Origin: a virus
Lineage: Duplodnaviria > Heunggongvirae > Uroviricota > Caudoviricetes
DNA length: 23,379 nt
IMG/VR virus record: IMGVR_UViG_2802429220_000004
Strand: one strand, 5' to 3'
Under the pieces are notes generated by a model, which made no database searches, had not been told where the DNA came from, and saw only the letters and a program-made list of their open reading frames with translations. The translations under genes were made by a program, and so were the position numbers. This document shows, piece after piece, positions 13,878 to 20,497 of this stretch; position 1 is the first letter of the stretch, and each line of letters starts with the position of its first letter.

Positions 13878-14204
13878 TCATAACACCGTCGGACAACGCA
13901 AATCGTAAATCAGCACGGACACAGAAAACGGCAGTTCCCCCTGCACGAGGTCTTCCCGCTCAGCAAGATCCGGATTCCGGTACAGCATCCCGGTCAGTCG
14001 CATGGCAGCCCCCTTCATCCGGGTTAATGCCTCGCCCGGGATCAGCTCACCGTCCTCACGAATCACTTTATCCCGGCTGCCCTGAATGTAGGCCAGCAGC
14101 ACGGCGGTAGCCTGACGAACCTTGTCCATCAGCATGTCATCATCCGCGTCATGGTCAACACGCAGATGTGCCTTGATCTCTTCCAGTGTCAGTAATGCCG
14201 TCAT
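13878..14204 (-). CDS. Head-tail connector protein (gp6-like)
   Basis: N-terminus MTALLTLEEIKAHLRVDHDADDDML… is typical of gp6-like connector proteins. Confidence 0.7.
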   Translation of the reverse strand: MTALLTLEEIKAHLRVDHDADDDMLMDKVRQATAVLLAYIQGSRDKVIREDGELIPGEALTRMKGAAMRLTGMLYRNPDLAEREDLVQGELPFSVSVLIYDLRCPTVL

Positions 14205-15262
14205 TTTCCGCCTCCTGCATCCCGTCCACGTTTTGCAGCCAGGGTCCAGCCTGATGAATGAGCTTCTCCGGGTTTATCACCGGTCATACTGTTGCAGTGC
14301 CACAGCGAGCCCCCCCACGTCACCGTATCGCCGGGGTGGTAGGTTTCACCGGCTCTGAACACACCGCGGTAGAGCATCACCGGCAGGGAAAATGTTTTTT
14401 CCGTACACTGGCCACTGCTCTGCCGGATCACCACAGAGAACAACCGCTCATCCGTCATGCTGACGTCGATATCCGCCACCCCGTCAACCAGGCATTCCCA
14501 TCCCCGCATCCCGTGCGTTTTTTCATACGCCCGCCAGAGTCCACCCAGGTGTGTGGCATACGTGCCCCGGGGAAAGGATTTTTGATCGTCAATAGCGGGG
14601 AGCACTTCCAGTGCCGTGGCATCACGCCCGTCCTGCGGAGCCGGAAGGGCATTCACCGCCTCCAGAACCGCCTGCTTCAGTACTTCCGGATCGTAATCAC
14701 GACCATCACGCGGAGCAGGGATATGGCTTACGGCCTCTTTCACCATCTGCTCAAGCATCGGACGCACATCATCCGGGGTGAGACTTTTACCGTCCGCCGG
14801 CTGCGGAATATTTGCGACCGCATCATTCACCGCCTGCCTCAGTACTTCCGGATCGTAGTCACGACCATCACGCGGAACAGGAATATGGCTTACAGCCTCT
14901 TTCACCATCTGCTCAAGCATCGGACGCACATCATCGGGGGTGATACTTTTGCCGTCTGCCGGCACCGGTATTTTCGCGACCGCATCATTCACCGCCTGCT
15001 TCAGTACTTCCGGATCATAATCGCGACCATCACGCGGTAGCGGAATGGCCCCCACTGCGTCATCCACCATCGCCTGCAGAACAGGGCTAACCTCATCCAC
15101 CGTCACATGCTTCTGTAACAGAGCGGACAGGGAAGCCAGTTTCTCTTCAAACGCTTGTGCCTGCGCGCTCATCTTCTCCTCAAATGTGCGCTGTAAATCC
15201 GCCAGCACCGTGGCGAATTCTTCTCCCAGGGCACGAATAATGGACAGTTCACGTTCATTCAT
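14201..15262 (-). CDS. Repeat-containing head-module protein (possible decoration or fibre protein): coiled-coil N-terminus, about 2.7 tandem 54-aa repeats, C-terminal possible carbohydrate-binding domain
   Basis: Repeats IPxPRDGRDYDPEVLxQAVNDAVAxIPxPADGKSxTPDDVRPMLEQMVKEAVSH; C-terminal …YHPGDTVTWGGSLWHCNSMTGDKPGE…GWTLA resembles a CBM5/12-type motif; ATGA overlap with the portal stop. Confidence 0.6.
   Translation of the reverse strand: MNERELSIIRALGEEFATVLADLQRTFEEKMSAQAQAFEEKLASLSALLQKHVTVDEVSPVLQAMVDDAVGAIPLPRDGRDYDPEVLKQAVNDAVAKIPVPADGKSITPDDVRPMLEQMVKEAVSHIPVPRDGRDYDPEVLRQAVNDAVANIPQPADGKSLTPDDVRPMLEQMVKEAVSHIPAPRDGRDYDPEVLKQAVLEAVNALPAPQDGRDATALEVLPAIDDQKSFPRGTYATHLGGLWRAYEKTHGMRGWECLVDGVADIDVSMTDERLFSVVIRQSSGQCTEKTFSLPVMLYRGVFRAGETYHPGDTVTWGGSLWHCNSMTGDKPGEAHSSGWTLAAKRGRDAGGGK
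14650..15045. repeat. Tandem 162-bp DNA repeat (about 2.5 to 3 copies) inside the 353-aa gene
   Basis: For example atatggcttac(g/a)gcctctttcaccatctgctcaagcatcggacgcacatcatc starts at 14721 and again at 14883. Confidence 0.85.
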
Positions 15263-16623
15263 TTTTTCAGAATCCCCCTGAACATCGCTTTCACCGCATC
15301 ATGCTCTGTTTCACTGATTGCCTTATTACCGTCAGATGCGCCGTCAGGCGGTTGCGCTAAGGCCGTTTTCCCGGTCGACGCGAACGGATCCTCACGGGCA
15401 TCACGACGGGACAGTGCCTCCAGACTGTAGTTCTGCTGCTGAAGATACAGTGCATCACCGCCGGCCAGGGGCGGCAGGTTCTCCCGTTTACGGGCCTCAT
15501 TGGGCGTGAGAAGCGTATTTTTCACCGCATCCCCCAGCGTTTTCATGCGCCGCTCACTGTCCATTCTCAGCAGCGTGGTGACATCAAATTCTGTACTCTC
15601 GTTTTCCCCCGTTTCCAGCGCCTCATCCAGTAACAGTTCAATGGACTCAATCAGCGTCTGCAGGCACTGGGAATAATACTGCTGCTCCAGCGCCTCCACG
15701 TTGTCACTGGAAGGCGGTTGTCCCACGCCAATCTTGTAGGCCGGGACACGGAACACCGAACAGACAATTTCAGCGGTCATCTTCAGTTGTTCCACCGTCT
15801 GCGCATCCACCGGTGAAAACGTCGTGGGGTTATATTTTGCCCCGTTGCTCAGAATGGCCGTTTTCCCCGCATTTTCGCCGGTATACCCGCTGTCCCAGTT
15901 GCTCTTCAGTTTTTTCGCATTTTCTTCCGTAATACTGCCGGGGATCTCAATCACCCCGGACGGCATGCCGCCATTTCTGAAAAAATACGTCGAATTTTCC
16001 TGAATATGATGCCCCTGCGTGGCGGCCAGCCCGGCGGCATACACCGGCGGCAACCCTATAAGCGGATGAAAAAAACAGTTAAACCGGTCGTGGATCACTT
16101 CCCGGGCAGGCACCGTCACCGCCTCAGTGATCCCGCAGTTCCGGTCCGGCGTGATGCGGTAGAACACTTCGCCGTCATCCGCCACCAGTGGTTCAACCCG
16201 GCTCCAGTCCAGAATGCGCAGTTCTTTGATCTGCCCCCGGGAGTTACGGATTTTCAGCACCACCGTATTGCCGTGACGCAGTTTGGCGTTCAGCCACAGT
16301 TCAAAAAACTGGATGCGGTTCTGCTGGGCGTTGGGACGACGACAGAGGCGGGCAATATCCCCCCGGCGAGTTTCCCTGCGTATCCCCTGCGCATCCGTCT
16401 GCATAAGACGCAGCCGCATTTTGGCGATATCCTGGGATATCAGCGAAATGCACGAAAACACCGCATGAAAGGAGAGGACGGCTTCCGGATCGGCTTTCAC
16501 GCCCTGCTGCCAGGCGCCGGAAAAGGGCTCAGCCACCGCCTGAAACAGGCTGGTCCAGCCCGCCTCTCTTACGTCACGTCCTGATTTCTGGTTTTTTCGG
16601 GTTCGCTGTAAAAGGTTCCACAT
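15259..16623 (-). CDS. Portal protein, HK97 family
   Basis: Size (454 aa) and the …QLKMTAEIVCSVFRVPAYKIG… motif match the HK97-family portal signature as I recall it. Confidence 0.85.
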   Translation of the reverse strand: MWNLLQRTRKNQKSGRDVREAGWTSLFQAVAEPFSGAWQQGVKADPEAVLSFHAVFSCISLISQDIAKMRLRLMQTDAQGIRRETRRGDIARLCRRPNAQQNRIQFFELWLNAKLRHGNTVVLKIRNSRGQIKELRILDWSRVEPLVADDGEVFYRITPDRNCGITEAVTVPAREVIHDRFNCFFHPLIGLPPVYAAGLAATQGHHIQENSTYFFRNGGMPSGVIEIPGSITEENAKKLKSNWDSGYTGENAGKTAILSNGAKYNPTTFSPVDAQTVEQLKMTAEIVCSVFRVPAYKIGVGQPPSSDNVEALEQQYYSQCLQTLIESIELLLDEALETGENESTEFDVTTLLRMDSERRMKTLGDAVKNTLLTPNEARKRENLPPLAGGDALYLQQQNYSLEALSRRDAREDPFASTGKTALAQPPDGASDGNKAISETEHDAVKAMFRGILKK

Positions 16624-16790
16624 TCGCCATGCTCCGCATCACGTTTCTTTTTCTGACCTGCCGGACGTCGCACCGTGATGTACTCCGCCTTTCCCAGGCG
16701 AACCAGCACCTCCGCGCACGGCTGTGCCACATCACGGATATCCCCGGCCCGGGCATCATGCGTGCCCTGCAGATATCGGATCTTTGCCAT
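16569..16790 (-). CDS. Hypothetical small protein (73 aa) between capsid and portal genes
   Basis: ORF in the track; 3' end overlaps the portal start by 55 nt in another frame; no SD adjacent to the ATG, but an AAGGAGGA lies 5' of a strong hairpin. Confidence 0.35.
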   Translation of the reverse strand: MAKIRYLQGTHDARAGDIRDVAQPCAEVLVRLGKAEYITVRRPAGQKKKRDAEHGECGTFYSEPEKTRNQDVT

Positions 16791-16834
16791 AACCTGTTAC
16801 GGGAGGCGCACGCCTCCCGTCCTCCTTATCAGAC

Positions 16835-18772
16835 TCAGCCGCCGGACGCACTGCCGTAGTTCACACCGGTGATCACCGCCACCGCCGCGGTACGGCGACG
16901 ACGCCAGTTGATCCAGCGCTCCGCACGGATGGCCACACTGCCTGTCTGGAACATGGAAACCAGCTCCACCGGCGACGGCGTGGTACTGTCGCCGGTCGGC
17001 TCAGACTGCATTTCCAGTGATGCCTCGCGGGACATATCCACTGCCACGCCGCCGTCATCCGCCAGATAAATATCCGGGGCATTCACCAGCACCAGCTGGT
17101 CACCCACGTACTGGGAGACAATCACCGGCAGCCCCTGGAAGGTCCCCCCCAGCAGGGTCATGTCCGGGTATTCCTTCTGACCCAGCGCATTTTTACGCAT
17201 GGACAGCGCCAGGGCATTGGTGCTGGACATCAGCCAGACCGCACCGGTGGGCTGCAGGTTTGCTGCCACAAACTGTCCAAACGCCGCCTCTGCATCCGCA
17301 TCCGGGTTACCGGTTGATGCCTTGCCCTTCACATCATGGGTGATGGACGCCGGGGAGACATCTGCCACTGCGGCTTTTTTCGGGTCCACAAAGTCTGTGT
17401 CCAGACGCGCCACCACCGCTTCTGCCAGCGCATTACGGACCAGCGCATCAGCTGCCGGACTGGAAAAACGGATCAGCTCTTCCGTCAGTACCGCAATGGC
17501 CGACACCTTCGCATGACTGAAGGTGATGGATTCAAAATCAAACTTCGTCAGGGGTTTTGCCTTACCCTCACCCACCCAGCCGGCAGCACCGCCGGACACC
17601 TGGGCGTGCACACGGATATTGAACGGCACCTGACGAAGTGCAGGGATCCCGCCCTGACCAAATCGCCCGATAATGGTCTGCGGACGCAGGTAATCAATAA
17701 AGTCCTGTGCGTATTCCTGATATTCAGACAGGCTGCCTGCCCACTGCGGATCCGTGGTGGTCCCCGCGCCCACTGCCGATTTCAGGACATGATGCAGACG
17801 ACTGTCATCCGGATACTGACGACGGGCCACTTCCAGGGCTTCAGAGCGGACACCTTTAGCCGCAGCCAGTGATTTGGCAAAGCGGGCGAAGCCAATCCCC
17901 TTATCCAGTTTCTGCTCCACACGGATCACCGGCGCTGAAGCCACCGCGGCCACATTCCCGTTACCGGCCTGTTTCACCGGCTGCGCCGTGGCGGCCTTAC
18001 CGGCTTCCAGTTCACGCAGGCGCTTCAGGTGCGCATCCACCTGACGGATTTCCGCTGCGGTGTTGTCGTAATGCTCTTCCTCCTCCACATCCAGCGTGCG
18101 CCCTTCCTCTGCGGCTTTGGTCATGACCTCCTCAAGGGAGGCTGCCAGCGCTGCACGCTTGTTTTCAAAACTTTTAATCTGTTCGCCAATATTCATTATG
18201 GTCTTTTCCTTATGAAAAACGGTTGTTGACTGTGCCGCAGCGCCGGCAGAAGATGCGATTTTCACCACCGGTTTCCGGTTGCCGGACGCGGCAGAAAACT
18301 GGCGGTCGTAAGATTTAATGGTCCGGATGGTGCATTCCGCATTCGCGGGCACGGTGACGGCAGACACCTCCATCAGTTCCCAGCGCAGAAAATGCAGTCC
18401 GCCTCCGTCCAGAAAGGTGTATTCATGGGGACGGAAGCCCACGGACAGTCCCCTGACCAGCCCGGTCTTAATGGCCGCCCAGGCCTCATCCAGTCGGGCT
18501 GCCAGTTGCGATGGCATATCCGGCACAGGCTTCGCCAGTGTTGCCGTGATTTCCAGCCCTTCGCTGACCCGGCGCACCGTACACTGCCCCACCGGGCGGG
18601 AATGGTCATGCTGCCAGAGAAACGGGATCGCACTGCCGAACTCCGCCCCCTCCGGCTCCAGGATGTCACCATCCCGATCCGGAGAAGGCGTTGACGCAAT
18701 CCCGGTGATCACCCGCTCATCCTCACTGAAGGATTTCACCGTCAGCAGGGAGCAGGCCCGTTTAAGATTCAC
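16835..18772 (-). CDS. Prohead protease (HK97/S78-like) fused in frame to scaffold-like segment and HK97-fold major capsid protein
   Basis: N-terminal …FLWQHDHSRP…ELMEVSAVTVPANAE… protease motifs; middle coiled-coil segment; long C-terminal capsid-like domain; GTG start with AGGAGG five nt upstream; internal in-frame ATG at 18196. Confidence 0.85.
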   Translation of the reverse strand: MNLKRACSLLTVKSFSEDERVITGIASTPSPDRDGDILEPEGAEFGSAIPFLWQHDHSRPVGQCTVRRVSEGLEITATLAKPVPDMPSQLAARLDEAWAAIKTGLVRGLSVGFRPHEYTFLDGGGLHFLRWELMEVSAVTVPANAECTIRTIKSYDRQFSAASGNRKPVVKIASSAGAAAQSTTVFHKEKTIMNIGEQIKSFENKRAALAASLEEVMTKAAEEGRTLDVEEEEHYDNTAAEIRQVDAHLKRLRELEAGKAATAQPVKQAGNGNVAAVASAPVIRVEQKLDKGIGFARFAKSLAAAKGVRSEALEVARRQYPDDSRLHHVLKSAVGAGTTTDPQWAGSLSEYQEYAQDFIDYLRPQTIIGRFGQGGIPALRQVPFNIRVHAQVSGGAAGWVGEGKAKPLTKFDFESITFSHAKVSAIAVLTEELIRFSSPAADALVRNALAEAVVARLDTDFVDPKKAAVADVSPASITHDVKGKASTGNPDADAEAAFGQFVAANLQPTGAVWLMSSTNALALSMRKNALGQKEYPDMTLLGGTFQGLPVIVSQYVGDQLVLVNAPDIYLADDGGVAVDMSREASLEMQSEPTGDSTTPSPVELVSMFQTGSVAIRAERWINWRRRRTAAVAVITGVNYGSASGG

Positions 18773-18789
18773 ATCAGCCTCCTGAAAAT

Positions 18790-18810
18790 AAAAAAACCGC
18801 CGCAGCGGTC
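18790..18810 (-). terminator. Short hairpin plus U7 run between terL and the protease-capsid gene
   Basis: On the minus strand ACCGC-TGCG-GCGGT followed by TTTTTTTATTTT, then the AGGAGG SD. Confidence 0.4.
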
Positions 18811-18835
18811 CATGATGGTTACAGGGTGAACAGGG

Positions 18836-20497
18836 TTATATGAAAAAAACCGCATATTCTTTCTTTTTGGGCTCCGGATTCAGGGACATCAGGGATACCG
18901 CATTGAAAAGCGCCATCAGCGGGTCGATTTTCCCCCGTCCGCTGGCCTGTTTGGTAATAAGGATGGCGTTACCTCTGGGCTCCACCCGGGCATTGCCAAC
19001 GCACCAGGCCATCAGTGGCTGGCCACCATGCACCAGCACCCCTTCAGCCAGTTTGCGTTCGGTGGTTTTGATGGCCCCGCCCAGCTTCCAGCCCTGGCTT
19101 ATCCCCACAACAATTCCGTCGGGGATCCCGGCTTCCGCCAGTGAATCCAGAATCTGCCCCACACCTGACGGGTCAATACCGATATGATCCAGTAACTCAG
19201 CCTCATGAATACGACGCACATACTCCGCCACTTCCGCCGTGTCATCCCCGACCCGACGGACAATCGTCATGTCTCCACAGGCCACAAAATCCTGAAACCG
19301 GGATGCCTCACTCTTCCGTCGGACCACCGCGGTTTCATGCGCCCAGGCATGGCCCCAGCCTAACCATTCGCGGGTCTCCCGATCACGACCAATCACGTAC
19401 ATTCCCAGCAGATCATCCAGGCCCCCGCCGTCAATCCCCACCGTCACCACATCAGCGCGCTGCAGGATATCTTCCAGGCTGACGCGCCTGCCCTGCTGCT
19501 CCCAGAAATCCGCGCCCGCCCAGCGGTCAGAACGCAGGGCAAGGCCAATTTCCACATTGGCGTGTTTTGACATGAAGCCACGAAATGCTTCCTCACCAGC
19601 CTCCCGGGCTTTACGGTACTCCCGGTACAGAAAGGCCTCATCCACCGAATAGCCGAGATTCGGATTGACCATGGCGAGGTTTTCCATCAGCAAGTGAGCC
19701 CCGCTTTCCACCATTTCAGGAGGGTGTTCAAATATCACCGGCAGAAAGTGCGGATCATGAATTTTGCCGTCGCGCACATCCCGGGCGTACTGCAGTTTCT
19801 GTCTGAACACCCCGGCGGGCGGTTCATTCGACTGGGTGGTCGTATACACCACAAACCCTTCCGGGCGGGAGGCAAGGCCGCCTATGGCTTCACGTAACAT
19901 GTCCTCCGCCTTGCACTGCTTGCCAAACAGCCACAACTCATCAATCAGCGTACCCACGGACTTGATACCGGACACCGTATTCGGATCGGCTGCCACCACC
20001 TTCAGGGTGGTGTCTGTCACCCTGTGGGTGATGGTCCGGATATGGGTCTGTACCTGGCAGAGGTCATCCAGATCATCGTCCCGTCGTACCATATCCCTGG
20101 CAGGATTGAAGGCGTTGGCTGCCACCTCCACAGTCGGGGCCAGAATCGTGTAACCCGCCGCCTGCCGCCAGTTCAGTAACAGCGCCGTCATCATGATCCC
20201 GGCGGCCAGTGTGGACTTGCTGTTTTTTTTGGGTATCAGAATGAACACTTCCTTGATATGGCGGACACCGGTCTGCGCATCGTAGGAGCCAAACAGAGCC
20301 GCCACCAGGTCAAACACCCACTGTGCACAGGACTCACCGAACGTCGGGCTGCCCGGTGCATCCACAATCCGCAGTTGTTTAAAAATCGCCAGGGCATGTG
20401 CGGCCTGCTCCGGGTAAATCGGAGACGGAATAATCGACAGCCCCTTTTTCAGGCGCTCTGCCCAGTCCGGGCAGGCCGTGCTCCACACAGGTATCAT
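18836..20497 (-). CDS. terL: Terminase large subunit
   Basis: 553 aa; Walker-A-like …LIPKKNSKST…; acidic nuclease-domain residues; directly downstream of and overlapping the small subunit gene. Confidence 0.9.
   Translation of the reverse strand: MIPVWSTACPDWAERLKKGLSIIPSPIYPEQAAHALAIFKQLRIVDAPGSPTFGESCAQWVFDLVAALFGSYDAQTGVRHIKEVFILIPKKNSKSTLAAGIMMTALLLNWRQAAGYTILAPTVEVAANAFNPARDMVRRDDDLDDLCQVQTHIRTITHRVTDTTLKVVAADPNTVSGIKSVGTLIDELWLFGKQCKAEDMLREAIGGLASRPEGFVVYTTTQSNEPPAGVFRQKLQYARDVRDGKIHDPHFLPVIFEHPPEMVESGAHLLMENLAMVNPNLGYSVDEAFLYREYRKAREAGEEAFRGFMSKHANVEIGLALRSDRWAGADFWEQQGRRVSLEDILQRADVVTVGIDGGGLDDLLGMYVIGRDRETREWLGWGHAWAHETAVVRRKSEASRFQDFVACGDMTIVRRVGDDTAEVAEYVRRIHEAELLDHIGIDPSGVGQILDSLAEAGIPDGIVVGISQGWKLGGAIKTTERKLAEGVLVHGGQPLMAWCVGNARVEPRGNAILITKQASGRGKIDPLMALFNAVSLMSLNPEPKKKEYAVFFI

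Follow-up and report, generated by a model that had tools for sequence, protein, structure and literature searches.

The subject of this analysis is one long open reading frame (ORF) of a tailed phage (Caudoviricetes; IMG/VR record IMGVR_UViG_2802429220_000004), of which a window of 23,379 nucleotides (nt) was analyzed; all coordinates refer to the whole of this window. The ORF (16835-18772, minus strand) encodes 645 amino acids (aa; 69.1 kDa) and comprises, in this order, an S78 protease, a linker, a delta-like scaffold domain and a major capsid protein of the HK97 fold. It opens with a GTG codon (18770-18772), which is ATG in the enterobacterial homologues from outside E. coli, and it closes with a stop codon (16835-16837) counted within the ORF coordinates. 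The GTG is preceded, at a spacer of 5 nt, by the Shine-Dalgarno (SD) sequence AGGAGG (18778-18783), and GGAG or GGAGG is kept at this position in the homologues. Inside the ORF, where the linker gives way to the scaffold domain, lies an in-frame ATG with an SD-like sequence of its own, from which a second, shorter protein is very probably produced.

A reading made from the nucleotide sequence without database searches (here, the sequence-only reading) had proposed that a protease, a scaffold-like coiled coil and a capsid protein are fused in frame, and this is borne out by the ORF itself, by Pfam and by an AlphaFold model. Pfam searches revealed Peptidase_S78 (PF04586, Caudovirus prohead serine protease; aa 48-153, 34.1 bits against a cut-off of 21) and Phage_capsid (PF05065; aa 386-635, 54.1 bits against a cut-off of 24.2), with S78 as the sole protease family detected and no ClpP or S49 match at E <= 0.01. 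The ORF also matched phrog_80 (head maturation protease, E = 3.5e-42) and, from end to end, the 626-position profile of PHROG 617 (major head protein, E = 8e-261). In an alignment of 42 diverse sequences (38-54% identity) H55 of a WQHD motif and S110 of a GLSxGF motif are invariant, as are the columns of E135 and S137; we take His55 and Ser110 to be the counterparts of His65 and Ser114 of the HK97 protease.

The same 42 sequences were used for the AlphaFold model (mean predicted local distance difference test (pLDDT) score of 80), which superseded a poor model based on 15 sequences (pLDDT 42). It comprises a beta-rich prohead protease domain (18323-18724; aa ~17-150, pLDDT 80-92), a disordered, A-rich and variable linker (18197-18322; aa 151-192, pLDDT <50), which carries the putative internal ribosome-binding site, a delta-like helical hairpin, the presumed internal scaffold (17987-18190; aa 195-262, with helices 195-223 and 229-262, pLDDT 92-95), a second, short disordered stretch (aa 266-283) and an HK97-fold capsid domain (16838-17923; aa ~284-645), all encoded on the minus strand. 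Foldseek searches with this model retrieved the capsid proteins of Bxb1, D3 and HK97 (E 7e-15 to 1e-10, probability 1.00), with PDB entries 3qpr and 8fqk among the fold matches, and a sequence match of the capsid domain in the PDB was 9d9w.

The fusion itself is real, common and previously annotated. The region shares 98% identity with phages BP-4795, 2851 and YYZ-2008 and with many phages converting to Shiga toxin (Stx) 1a or Stx2 production, and the same ORF is ORF56 of BP-4795, recorded as a single coding sequence (CDS) for a "putative major head protein/prohead protease"; in other phage records it is labelled "major capsid protein", "capsid and scaffold" or "hypothetical protein". The junction region was found in 1254 of 5426 complete E. 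coli genomes, in up to 7 copies per genome and always under one "phage major capsid protein" CDS. Homologues of ~645 aa (644-648 aa) occur at 73-99% identity in E. coli, Salmonella, Enterobacter, Klebsiella, Serratia and others, those at 73-78% identity being spread throughout the Enterobacterales.

The in-frame ATG to which the sequence-only reading had drawn attention is indeed present (Met193; 18194-18196, minus strand), in the context ...HKEKTI-M-NIGEQIK..., and the sequence AAGGAAAAG that had been reported before it was found at 18203-18211 (minus strand); it is SD-like, with the core AAGGAA at 18206-18211. The proposed nested ORF (16835-18196, minus strand; 453 aa, 48.3 kDa) is in frame with the full-length ORF, shares its stop codon and encodes the delta-like scaffold domain together with the capsid protein. 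Met193 stands exactly where the disordered linker passes into the first delta-like helix. The internal SD is moderate: its free energy of pairing (dG) with the anti-SD is -6.2, ~11% of the positions in the ORF bind equally well, and the internal ATG ranks 6th by SD among the 50 in-frame candidate start codons. Taken from this one sequence, SD strength is not significant and was therefore discarded as proof, and the case rests on conservation and on the openness of the mRNA. As regards the latter, the internal start site is the lowest-GC and least folded stretch of the ORF, the 60-nt window around the ATG having a GC content of 0.38 (vs 0.60 for the ORF) and a folding energy of -6.1 kcal/mol (vs a mean of -18.5 kcal/mol), which places it in the top 0.5% of windows. 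A crude thermodynamic estimate sets the internal site ~50-fold above the GTG start, a rough figure to be read for its direction only.

Conservation was analyzed in 67 distinct DNA junctions of fused homologues from bacterial genomes and viral contigs, sharing 32-99% protein identity. At the N-terminus of the delta domain the codon is ATG in 63 junctions and GTG in the other 4. Anti-SD pairing with a dG of <= -5 kcal/mol was found upstream of this codon in 65 junctions, compared with 15.6% of 846 other in-frame ATGs of the same ORFs (Mann-Whitney p = 2e-31, a value that overstates independence because the 67 junctions are related sequences). In all 67, 4 nt or more match AAGGAGGT, and the aligned spacing is 4-8 nt in 66 of them. 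The start-site window is in the top 2% for low structure and GC in 45 of the 67 sequences.

The manner in which the SD core is encoded is informative. Its GG begins at codon position 3 in 35 junctions and at position 1 in 31, and the core is spelled by 17 different peptides, including KG, KE, EEG, QEG, KEG and RR. Enterobacterial genes use AAA-GGA (Lys-Gly) or AAG-GAA (Lys-Glu), the more distant genes of higher GC content use GAG-GAG-GGC, CAG-GAG-GGC or AAG-GAG-GGC (Glu/Gln/Lys-Glu-Gly), and AGG-AGA, ACG-GAG-GCT and others also occur. Since the core is kept in two codon registers and by 17 peptides, the constraint acts on the nucleotides and not on the peptide. Codon choice is biased as well: of the 16 Gly codons in the enterobacterial K-G motif of the linker, 14 are GGA and 2 are GGG, with GGA making up 9.5% of the Gly codons of these ORFs. 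In the enterobacterial alignment variability is highest in the linker, which contains indels; Met193 is invariant there and opens a conserved block, MNIAEQIKSFE. A separate observation concerns a homologue in an Arsenophonus endosymbiont (L022, 3000-4930), which is broken into at least 4 ORF fragments and so is a decaying prophage copy in an insect endosymbiont; the fragment with the junction nonetheless reads ...KKESQ-M-TIA...

The survey was then extended to proteins: HMMER, run exhaustively over 1.84 billion cluster representatives, yielded 1198 proteins at E <= 1e-30. Protease sequence lies upstream of the capsid part in 145 of the 150 best representatives (144 without P0246, a 376-aa fragment). 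The 144 representatives (<=50% mutual identity) and the protein of the window were scored, giving 145 fused proteins, of which 130 have a Met no more than 8 residues ahead of the first delta helix, in most cases 4-5 residues before a conserved Glu; the others have Val (13) or Leu (2). This is the set of residues to be expected of ATG, GTG and TTG start codons and not of an ordinary residue. Two of the proteins retrieved (P0123 and P0132; ~1090 aa, <=50% mutual identity) have a different architecture, in which an AAA ATPase domain (PF00004, aa ~225-340) lies N-terminal to the S78 protease-capsid unit, and in both the Met that opens the delta domain is retained. No protein of the AAA-protease-capsid type was found in viral contigs, and these two may be cases in which the capsid module has been domesticated or serves a purpose outside phages.

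Relatives in which the two parts are separate point to the same codon. Five stand-alone capsid proteins (P0202, P0228, P0255, P0258 and P0266; 456-478 aa) match, from their first residues on, the part of the fused protein that begins with Met193. At two Snodgrassella loci (L027 and L030) the protease ends with a stop codon, followed by AGAGGA and an ATG that opens MTIEEQI; in a viral contig (L099) TAA stands directly before the ATG, and the SD lies within the last codons of the protease; in Acidovorax (L026) the protease and capsid parts are in different frames. From these loci it follows that fused and unfused genes differ essentially by one stop codon, and both have the predicted ribosome-binding site of the capsid gene. 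The nearest relatives of each unfused representative are fused, which suggests that lineages have switched repeatedly between the two states.

The sequences make it probable that the gene specifies two nested in-frame products which share one stop codon, a 69-kDa protease-bearing protein and a 48-kDa scaffold-capsid subunit. The suggestion that the internal ATG serves as a second start for a stand-alone scaffold-capsid protein is strongly supported by comparison, namely by a start codon in all 67 junctions, an SD at functional spacing, the open A-rich mRNA and unfused capsid homologues that begin at the same Met. From these features we infer in vivo use of the site. Initiation at GTG 18772 would produce the 69-kDa protease-linker-scaffold-capsid protein, and independent initiation at ATG 18196, at an open A-rich site with an SD of its own, would produce the 48-kDa scaffold-capsid protein. 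Both forms carry the delta-like domain and the capsid fold, and for this reason they should co-assemble into one procapsid shell. The long form would tether the protease to the inner surface of the shell, making a separate targeting peptide unnecessary, and once the shell has assembled the protease would excise itself together with the linker and the delta domains, so that the mature capsid protein alone remains. The ratio of the two products, which may set the amount of protease per prohead as had been suggested, the co-assembly and the cleavage steps are all put forward by analogy with HK97 gp4/gp5, lambda C/Nu3 and UL26/UL26.5 of HSV-1 (herpes simplex virus 1).

The long form is probably the minority species, given its GTG start (in the E. 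coli group), the potential of an upstream hairpin to pair into its initiation region and the ~50-fold estimate mentioned above. This hairpin, GGACCGCTGCGGCGGTTT, is terminator-like, has a T-run and lies between terL and the protease-capsid gene (18794-18811, minus strand), ~10 nt before AGGAGG; many of the homologues likewise have a T-run immediately before the SD of the full-length product (tttttcgtttcTGGAGG). The hairpin may limit transcription into the long product or occlude its initiation, and it could also be a late-operon terminator that requires antitermination.

Nested genes of this general kind are known. In lambda (C/Nu3), Mu (I/Z) and HSV-1 (UL26/UL26.5) the protease forms the N-terminus of the long product, and an internally started shorter product shares its C-terminus. 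In systems of the lambda C/Nu3 type the shared C-terminal part drives co-assembly, by which the protease is delivered in sub-stoichiometric amounts. A nested pair of the archaeal virus HFTV1, gp17/gp17.5, has been demonstrated by ribosome profiling and mass spectrometry (MS) (bioRxiv 10.64898/2026.09.13.751334). Expression of the short form is proven in these systems, whereas here it is predicted. The analogy with C/Nu3 that had been drawn for the present gene holds for the nested in-frame arrangement with a common C-terminus and fails in two respects: the protease is of the S78 family (HK97 gp4-like) and not of the lambda C type, and the nested product includes the capsid protein with its own delta scaffold, whereas in lambda, Mu, HSV-1 and HFTV1 it is a separate scaffold and the capsid protein is encoded by another gene. 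As the nested ORF holds the whole capsid fold, the arrangement would be a variant of the C/Nu3 class that lacks one of its defining features.

In its protein families the gene is of the type of HK97, in which a gp4 protease and a gp5 capsid protein with a delta domain follow an established maturation pathway. As in HK97, there is a PF04586 protease directly upstream of the capsid protein, a capsid fold, a helical N-terminal scaffold domain of ~100 aa and no separate scaffold gene. The difference is that protease and capsid protein are encoded by separate genes in HK97 and by one ORF here, as if a gp4/gp5-type pair had no intervening stop; it is the lack of this stop that makes a covalent tether possible. 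The free protease of HK97 is reportedly targeted non-covalently, by its C-terminal region.

Fusions of protease, scaffold and capsid have been described elsewhere. The temperate proteobacterial Pseudomonas phage MD8 carries all three in one ORF (PMC8508860), and the Salmonella phage Gifsy-2 has a capsid gene that is described as tripartite (Effantin et al. 2010, Virology 402:355, as cited in PMC12315714). The gene studied here resembles both, Gifsy-2 being likewise a temperate phage of a proteobacterium, in having the three parts in one ORF. The Gifsy-2 study is said to deal with a ClpP- or lambda C-like protease and a scaffold segment of ~200 aa. In the Gifsy-2 and MD8 type of fusion the protease is described as ClpP- or lambda C-like and the scaffold measures ~200 aa, whereas here an S78 protease is combined with a delta domain of ~90 aa. 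In actinobacteriophages "capsid and protease fusion" is a routine annotation of one gene; the domain order is the same, and the hosts and lineages are different. An internal start is not discussed in the text on MD8 (PMC8508860) and is not mentioned in the sources on actinobacteriophage fusions. Likewise, no published report or test of an internal start in an S78 protease-capsid fusion was found, though an earlier mention is possible.

Several points weigh against the production of two proteins from this gene. The internal SD of the window is only moderate and not the best of its ORF, the statistical support derives from related junctions (as stated above), and some of the "unfused" database proteins could reflect the choices of gene callers and not real separate genes. 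Searches of the literature turned up neither N-terminal sequences nor mass spectra nor ribosome profiles for phages of this group, and likewise no proteomics of virions of the BP-4795 type. Moreover, a shell built of the full-length protein alone is physically possible by a volume estimate, according to which 415 copies of residues 1-283 would fill ~40-53% of the cavity of a T=7 procapsid with a radius of 19-21 nm (both the T number and the radius being assumed).

The last point is most relevant to the explanation that competes best, namely that the ATG and its SD are relics of a gene fusion, that only the full-length protein is made and that each subunit carries a protease which removes itself. 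The databases annotate one CDS, the unfused relatives show that a fusion could arise through the loss of a stop codon, 415 tethered proteases fit by volume, and the tripartite genes of Gifsy-2 and MD8 are usually described as single products. However, a neutral relic should decay as the surrounding linker did, which has diverged beyond recognition and accumulated indels, whereas homologues with as little as 32% identity still have the start codon, the SD core with its spacing and the open structure, in two codon registers and with a bias among synonymous codons. A relic is therefore regarded as unlikely.

Another explanation is that the purine-rich motif and the open region act on elongation or on the protein, either as a pause that allows the protease to fold or as a flexible, Lys/Gly/Glu-rich site at which the protease releases itself by cleavage. 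The motif does sit in a disordered linker between two folded modules, linkers rich in Lys, Glu and Gly are common, and the protease must cut near here. Such a role leaves unexplained why a Met or Val codon (ATG or GTG) follows 4-8 nt downstream in 67 of 67 junctions and why stand-alone capsid genes start at that very codon, and the peptide over the motif is unconserved (17 variants in two registers), so that this explanation appears quite improbable.

There is next to no probability that the fusion stems from faulty sequencing or assembly, or that the ORF is a pseudogene, with two genes in reality. Odd single fusions do exist (e.g. P0001 of E. coli, 1079 aa, from one contig, with TerL, protease and capsid), but the present one recurs across enterobacteria, in Stx phages that have been isolated and form plaques and in 1254 of the complete E. 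coli genomes, and upstream protease sequence is present in 145 of the 150 best representatives (144 without P0246). P0001 itself, in which the TerL ATPase domain, the protease and the capsid protein form one ORF, most likely results from a frameshift or assembly error that removed the terL stop.

A programmed frameshift releasing free protease was also considered and rejected for the window, which contains no A7-A8 run and no X XXY YYZ heptamer in register. In many enterobacterial homologues (L007, L008, L009, L012, L014 and L015) such A7-A8 runs are present in the linker, read in frame as GCA AAA AAA, 20-30 nt upstream of the internal ATG; they correspond to an A AAA AAA-type slippery pattern and could in principle free the protease.

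The two-product interpretation can be extended from this gene to the whole S78 fusion family, whose members would be operon junctions without a stop codon: most capsid protein would be made from the internal start, and a few read-through subunits would bring the tethered protease, the tether replacing a targeting peptide. We lean towards this extension, if with some reserve. On such a scheme lineages could switch between the fused and unfused states by loss or gain of a stop codon, because the putative internal ribosome-binding site is never lost.

While the fusion was already known, what appears to be new is the conserved nested capsid start. In thousands of phage and prophage genomes, those of the Stx-converting phages of enterohaemorrhagic E. 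coli (EHEC) among them, a protease-capsid fusion is annotated as one product, and this presents a puzzle of stoichiometry, as it implies one protease per capsid subunit or ~415 per T=7 head. The puzzle would be resolved by a functional start at the conserved internal site. If the two-product interpretation is correct, the nested genes of lambda, Mu, herpesviruses and an archaeal tailed virus are joined by a case in which the capsid protein is the nested product; genome annotation should give two products; any use of these capsids as nanocontainers would need the short form; and the ratio of the two starts would be a control point for the amount of packaged protease. In addition, the retention of a start codon and SD across codon registers within a decayed linker offers a way of finding functional internal starts.

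As regards the genomic context, the window is a block of late genes from a lambdoid prophage of the Stx type. On the minus strand the genes are arranged in the order terS, terL, the protease-capsid gene, an ORF of 73 aa (16569-16790; phrog_829, of unknown function) and the portal gene, and no separate scaffold gene was found among the neighbours (terL, the 73-aa ORF and the portal gene). The portal gene is thus located downstream of the capsid gene in this unusually ordered head-gene cluster (15259-20497, minus strand), unlike in HK97 and lambda, in which it precedes the protease and capsid genes. Plus-strand ORFs overlapping the protease-capsid gene (e.g. 17336-17872 and 18318-18785) were without support and were treated as GC-driven noise, and an Rfam scan of the window gave no match. 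The portal ORF (15259-16623, 454 aa) and the next ORF (14201-15262, 353 aa), both on the minus strand, are joined by an ATGA overlap and match one 859-position profile, phrog_2271 (portal protein), so that they are read as one protein in some phages. The second of them, with its 353 aa, is shorter than its counterpart in BP-4795 (ORF59, 461 aa), which suggests a truncation or a different C-terminal part.

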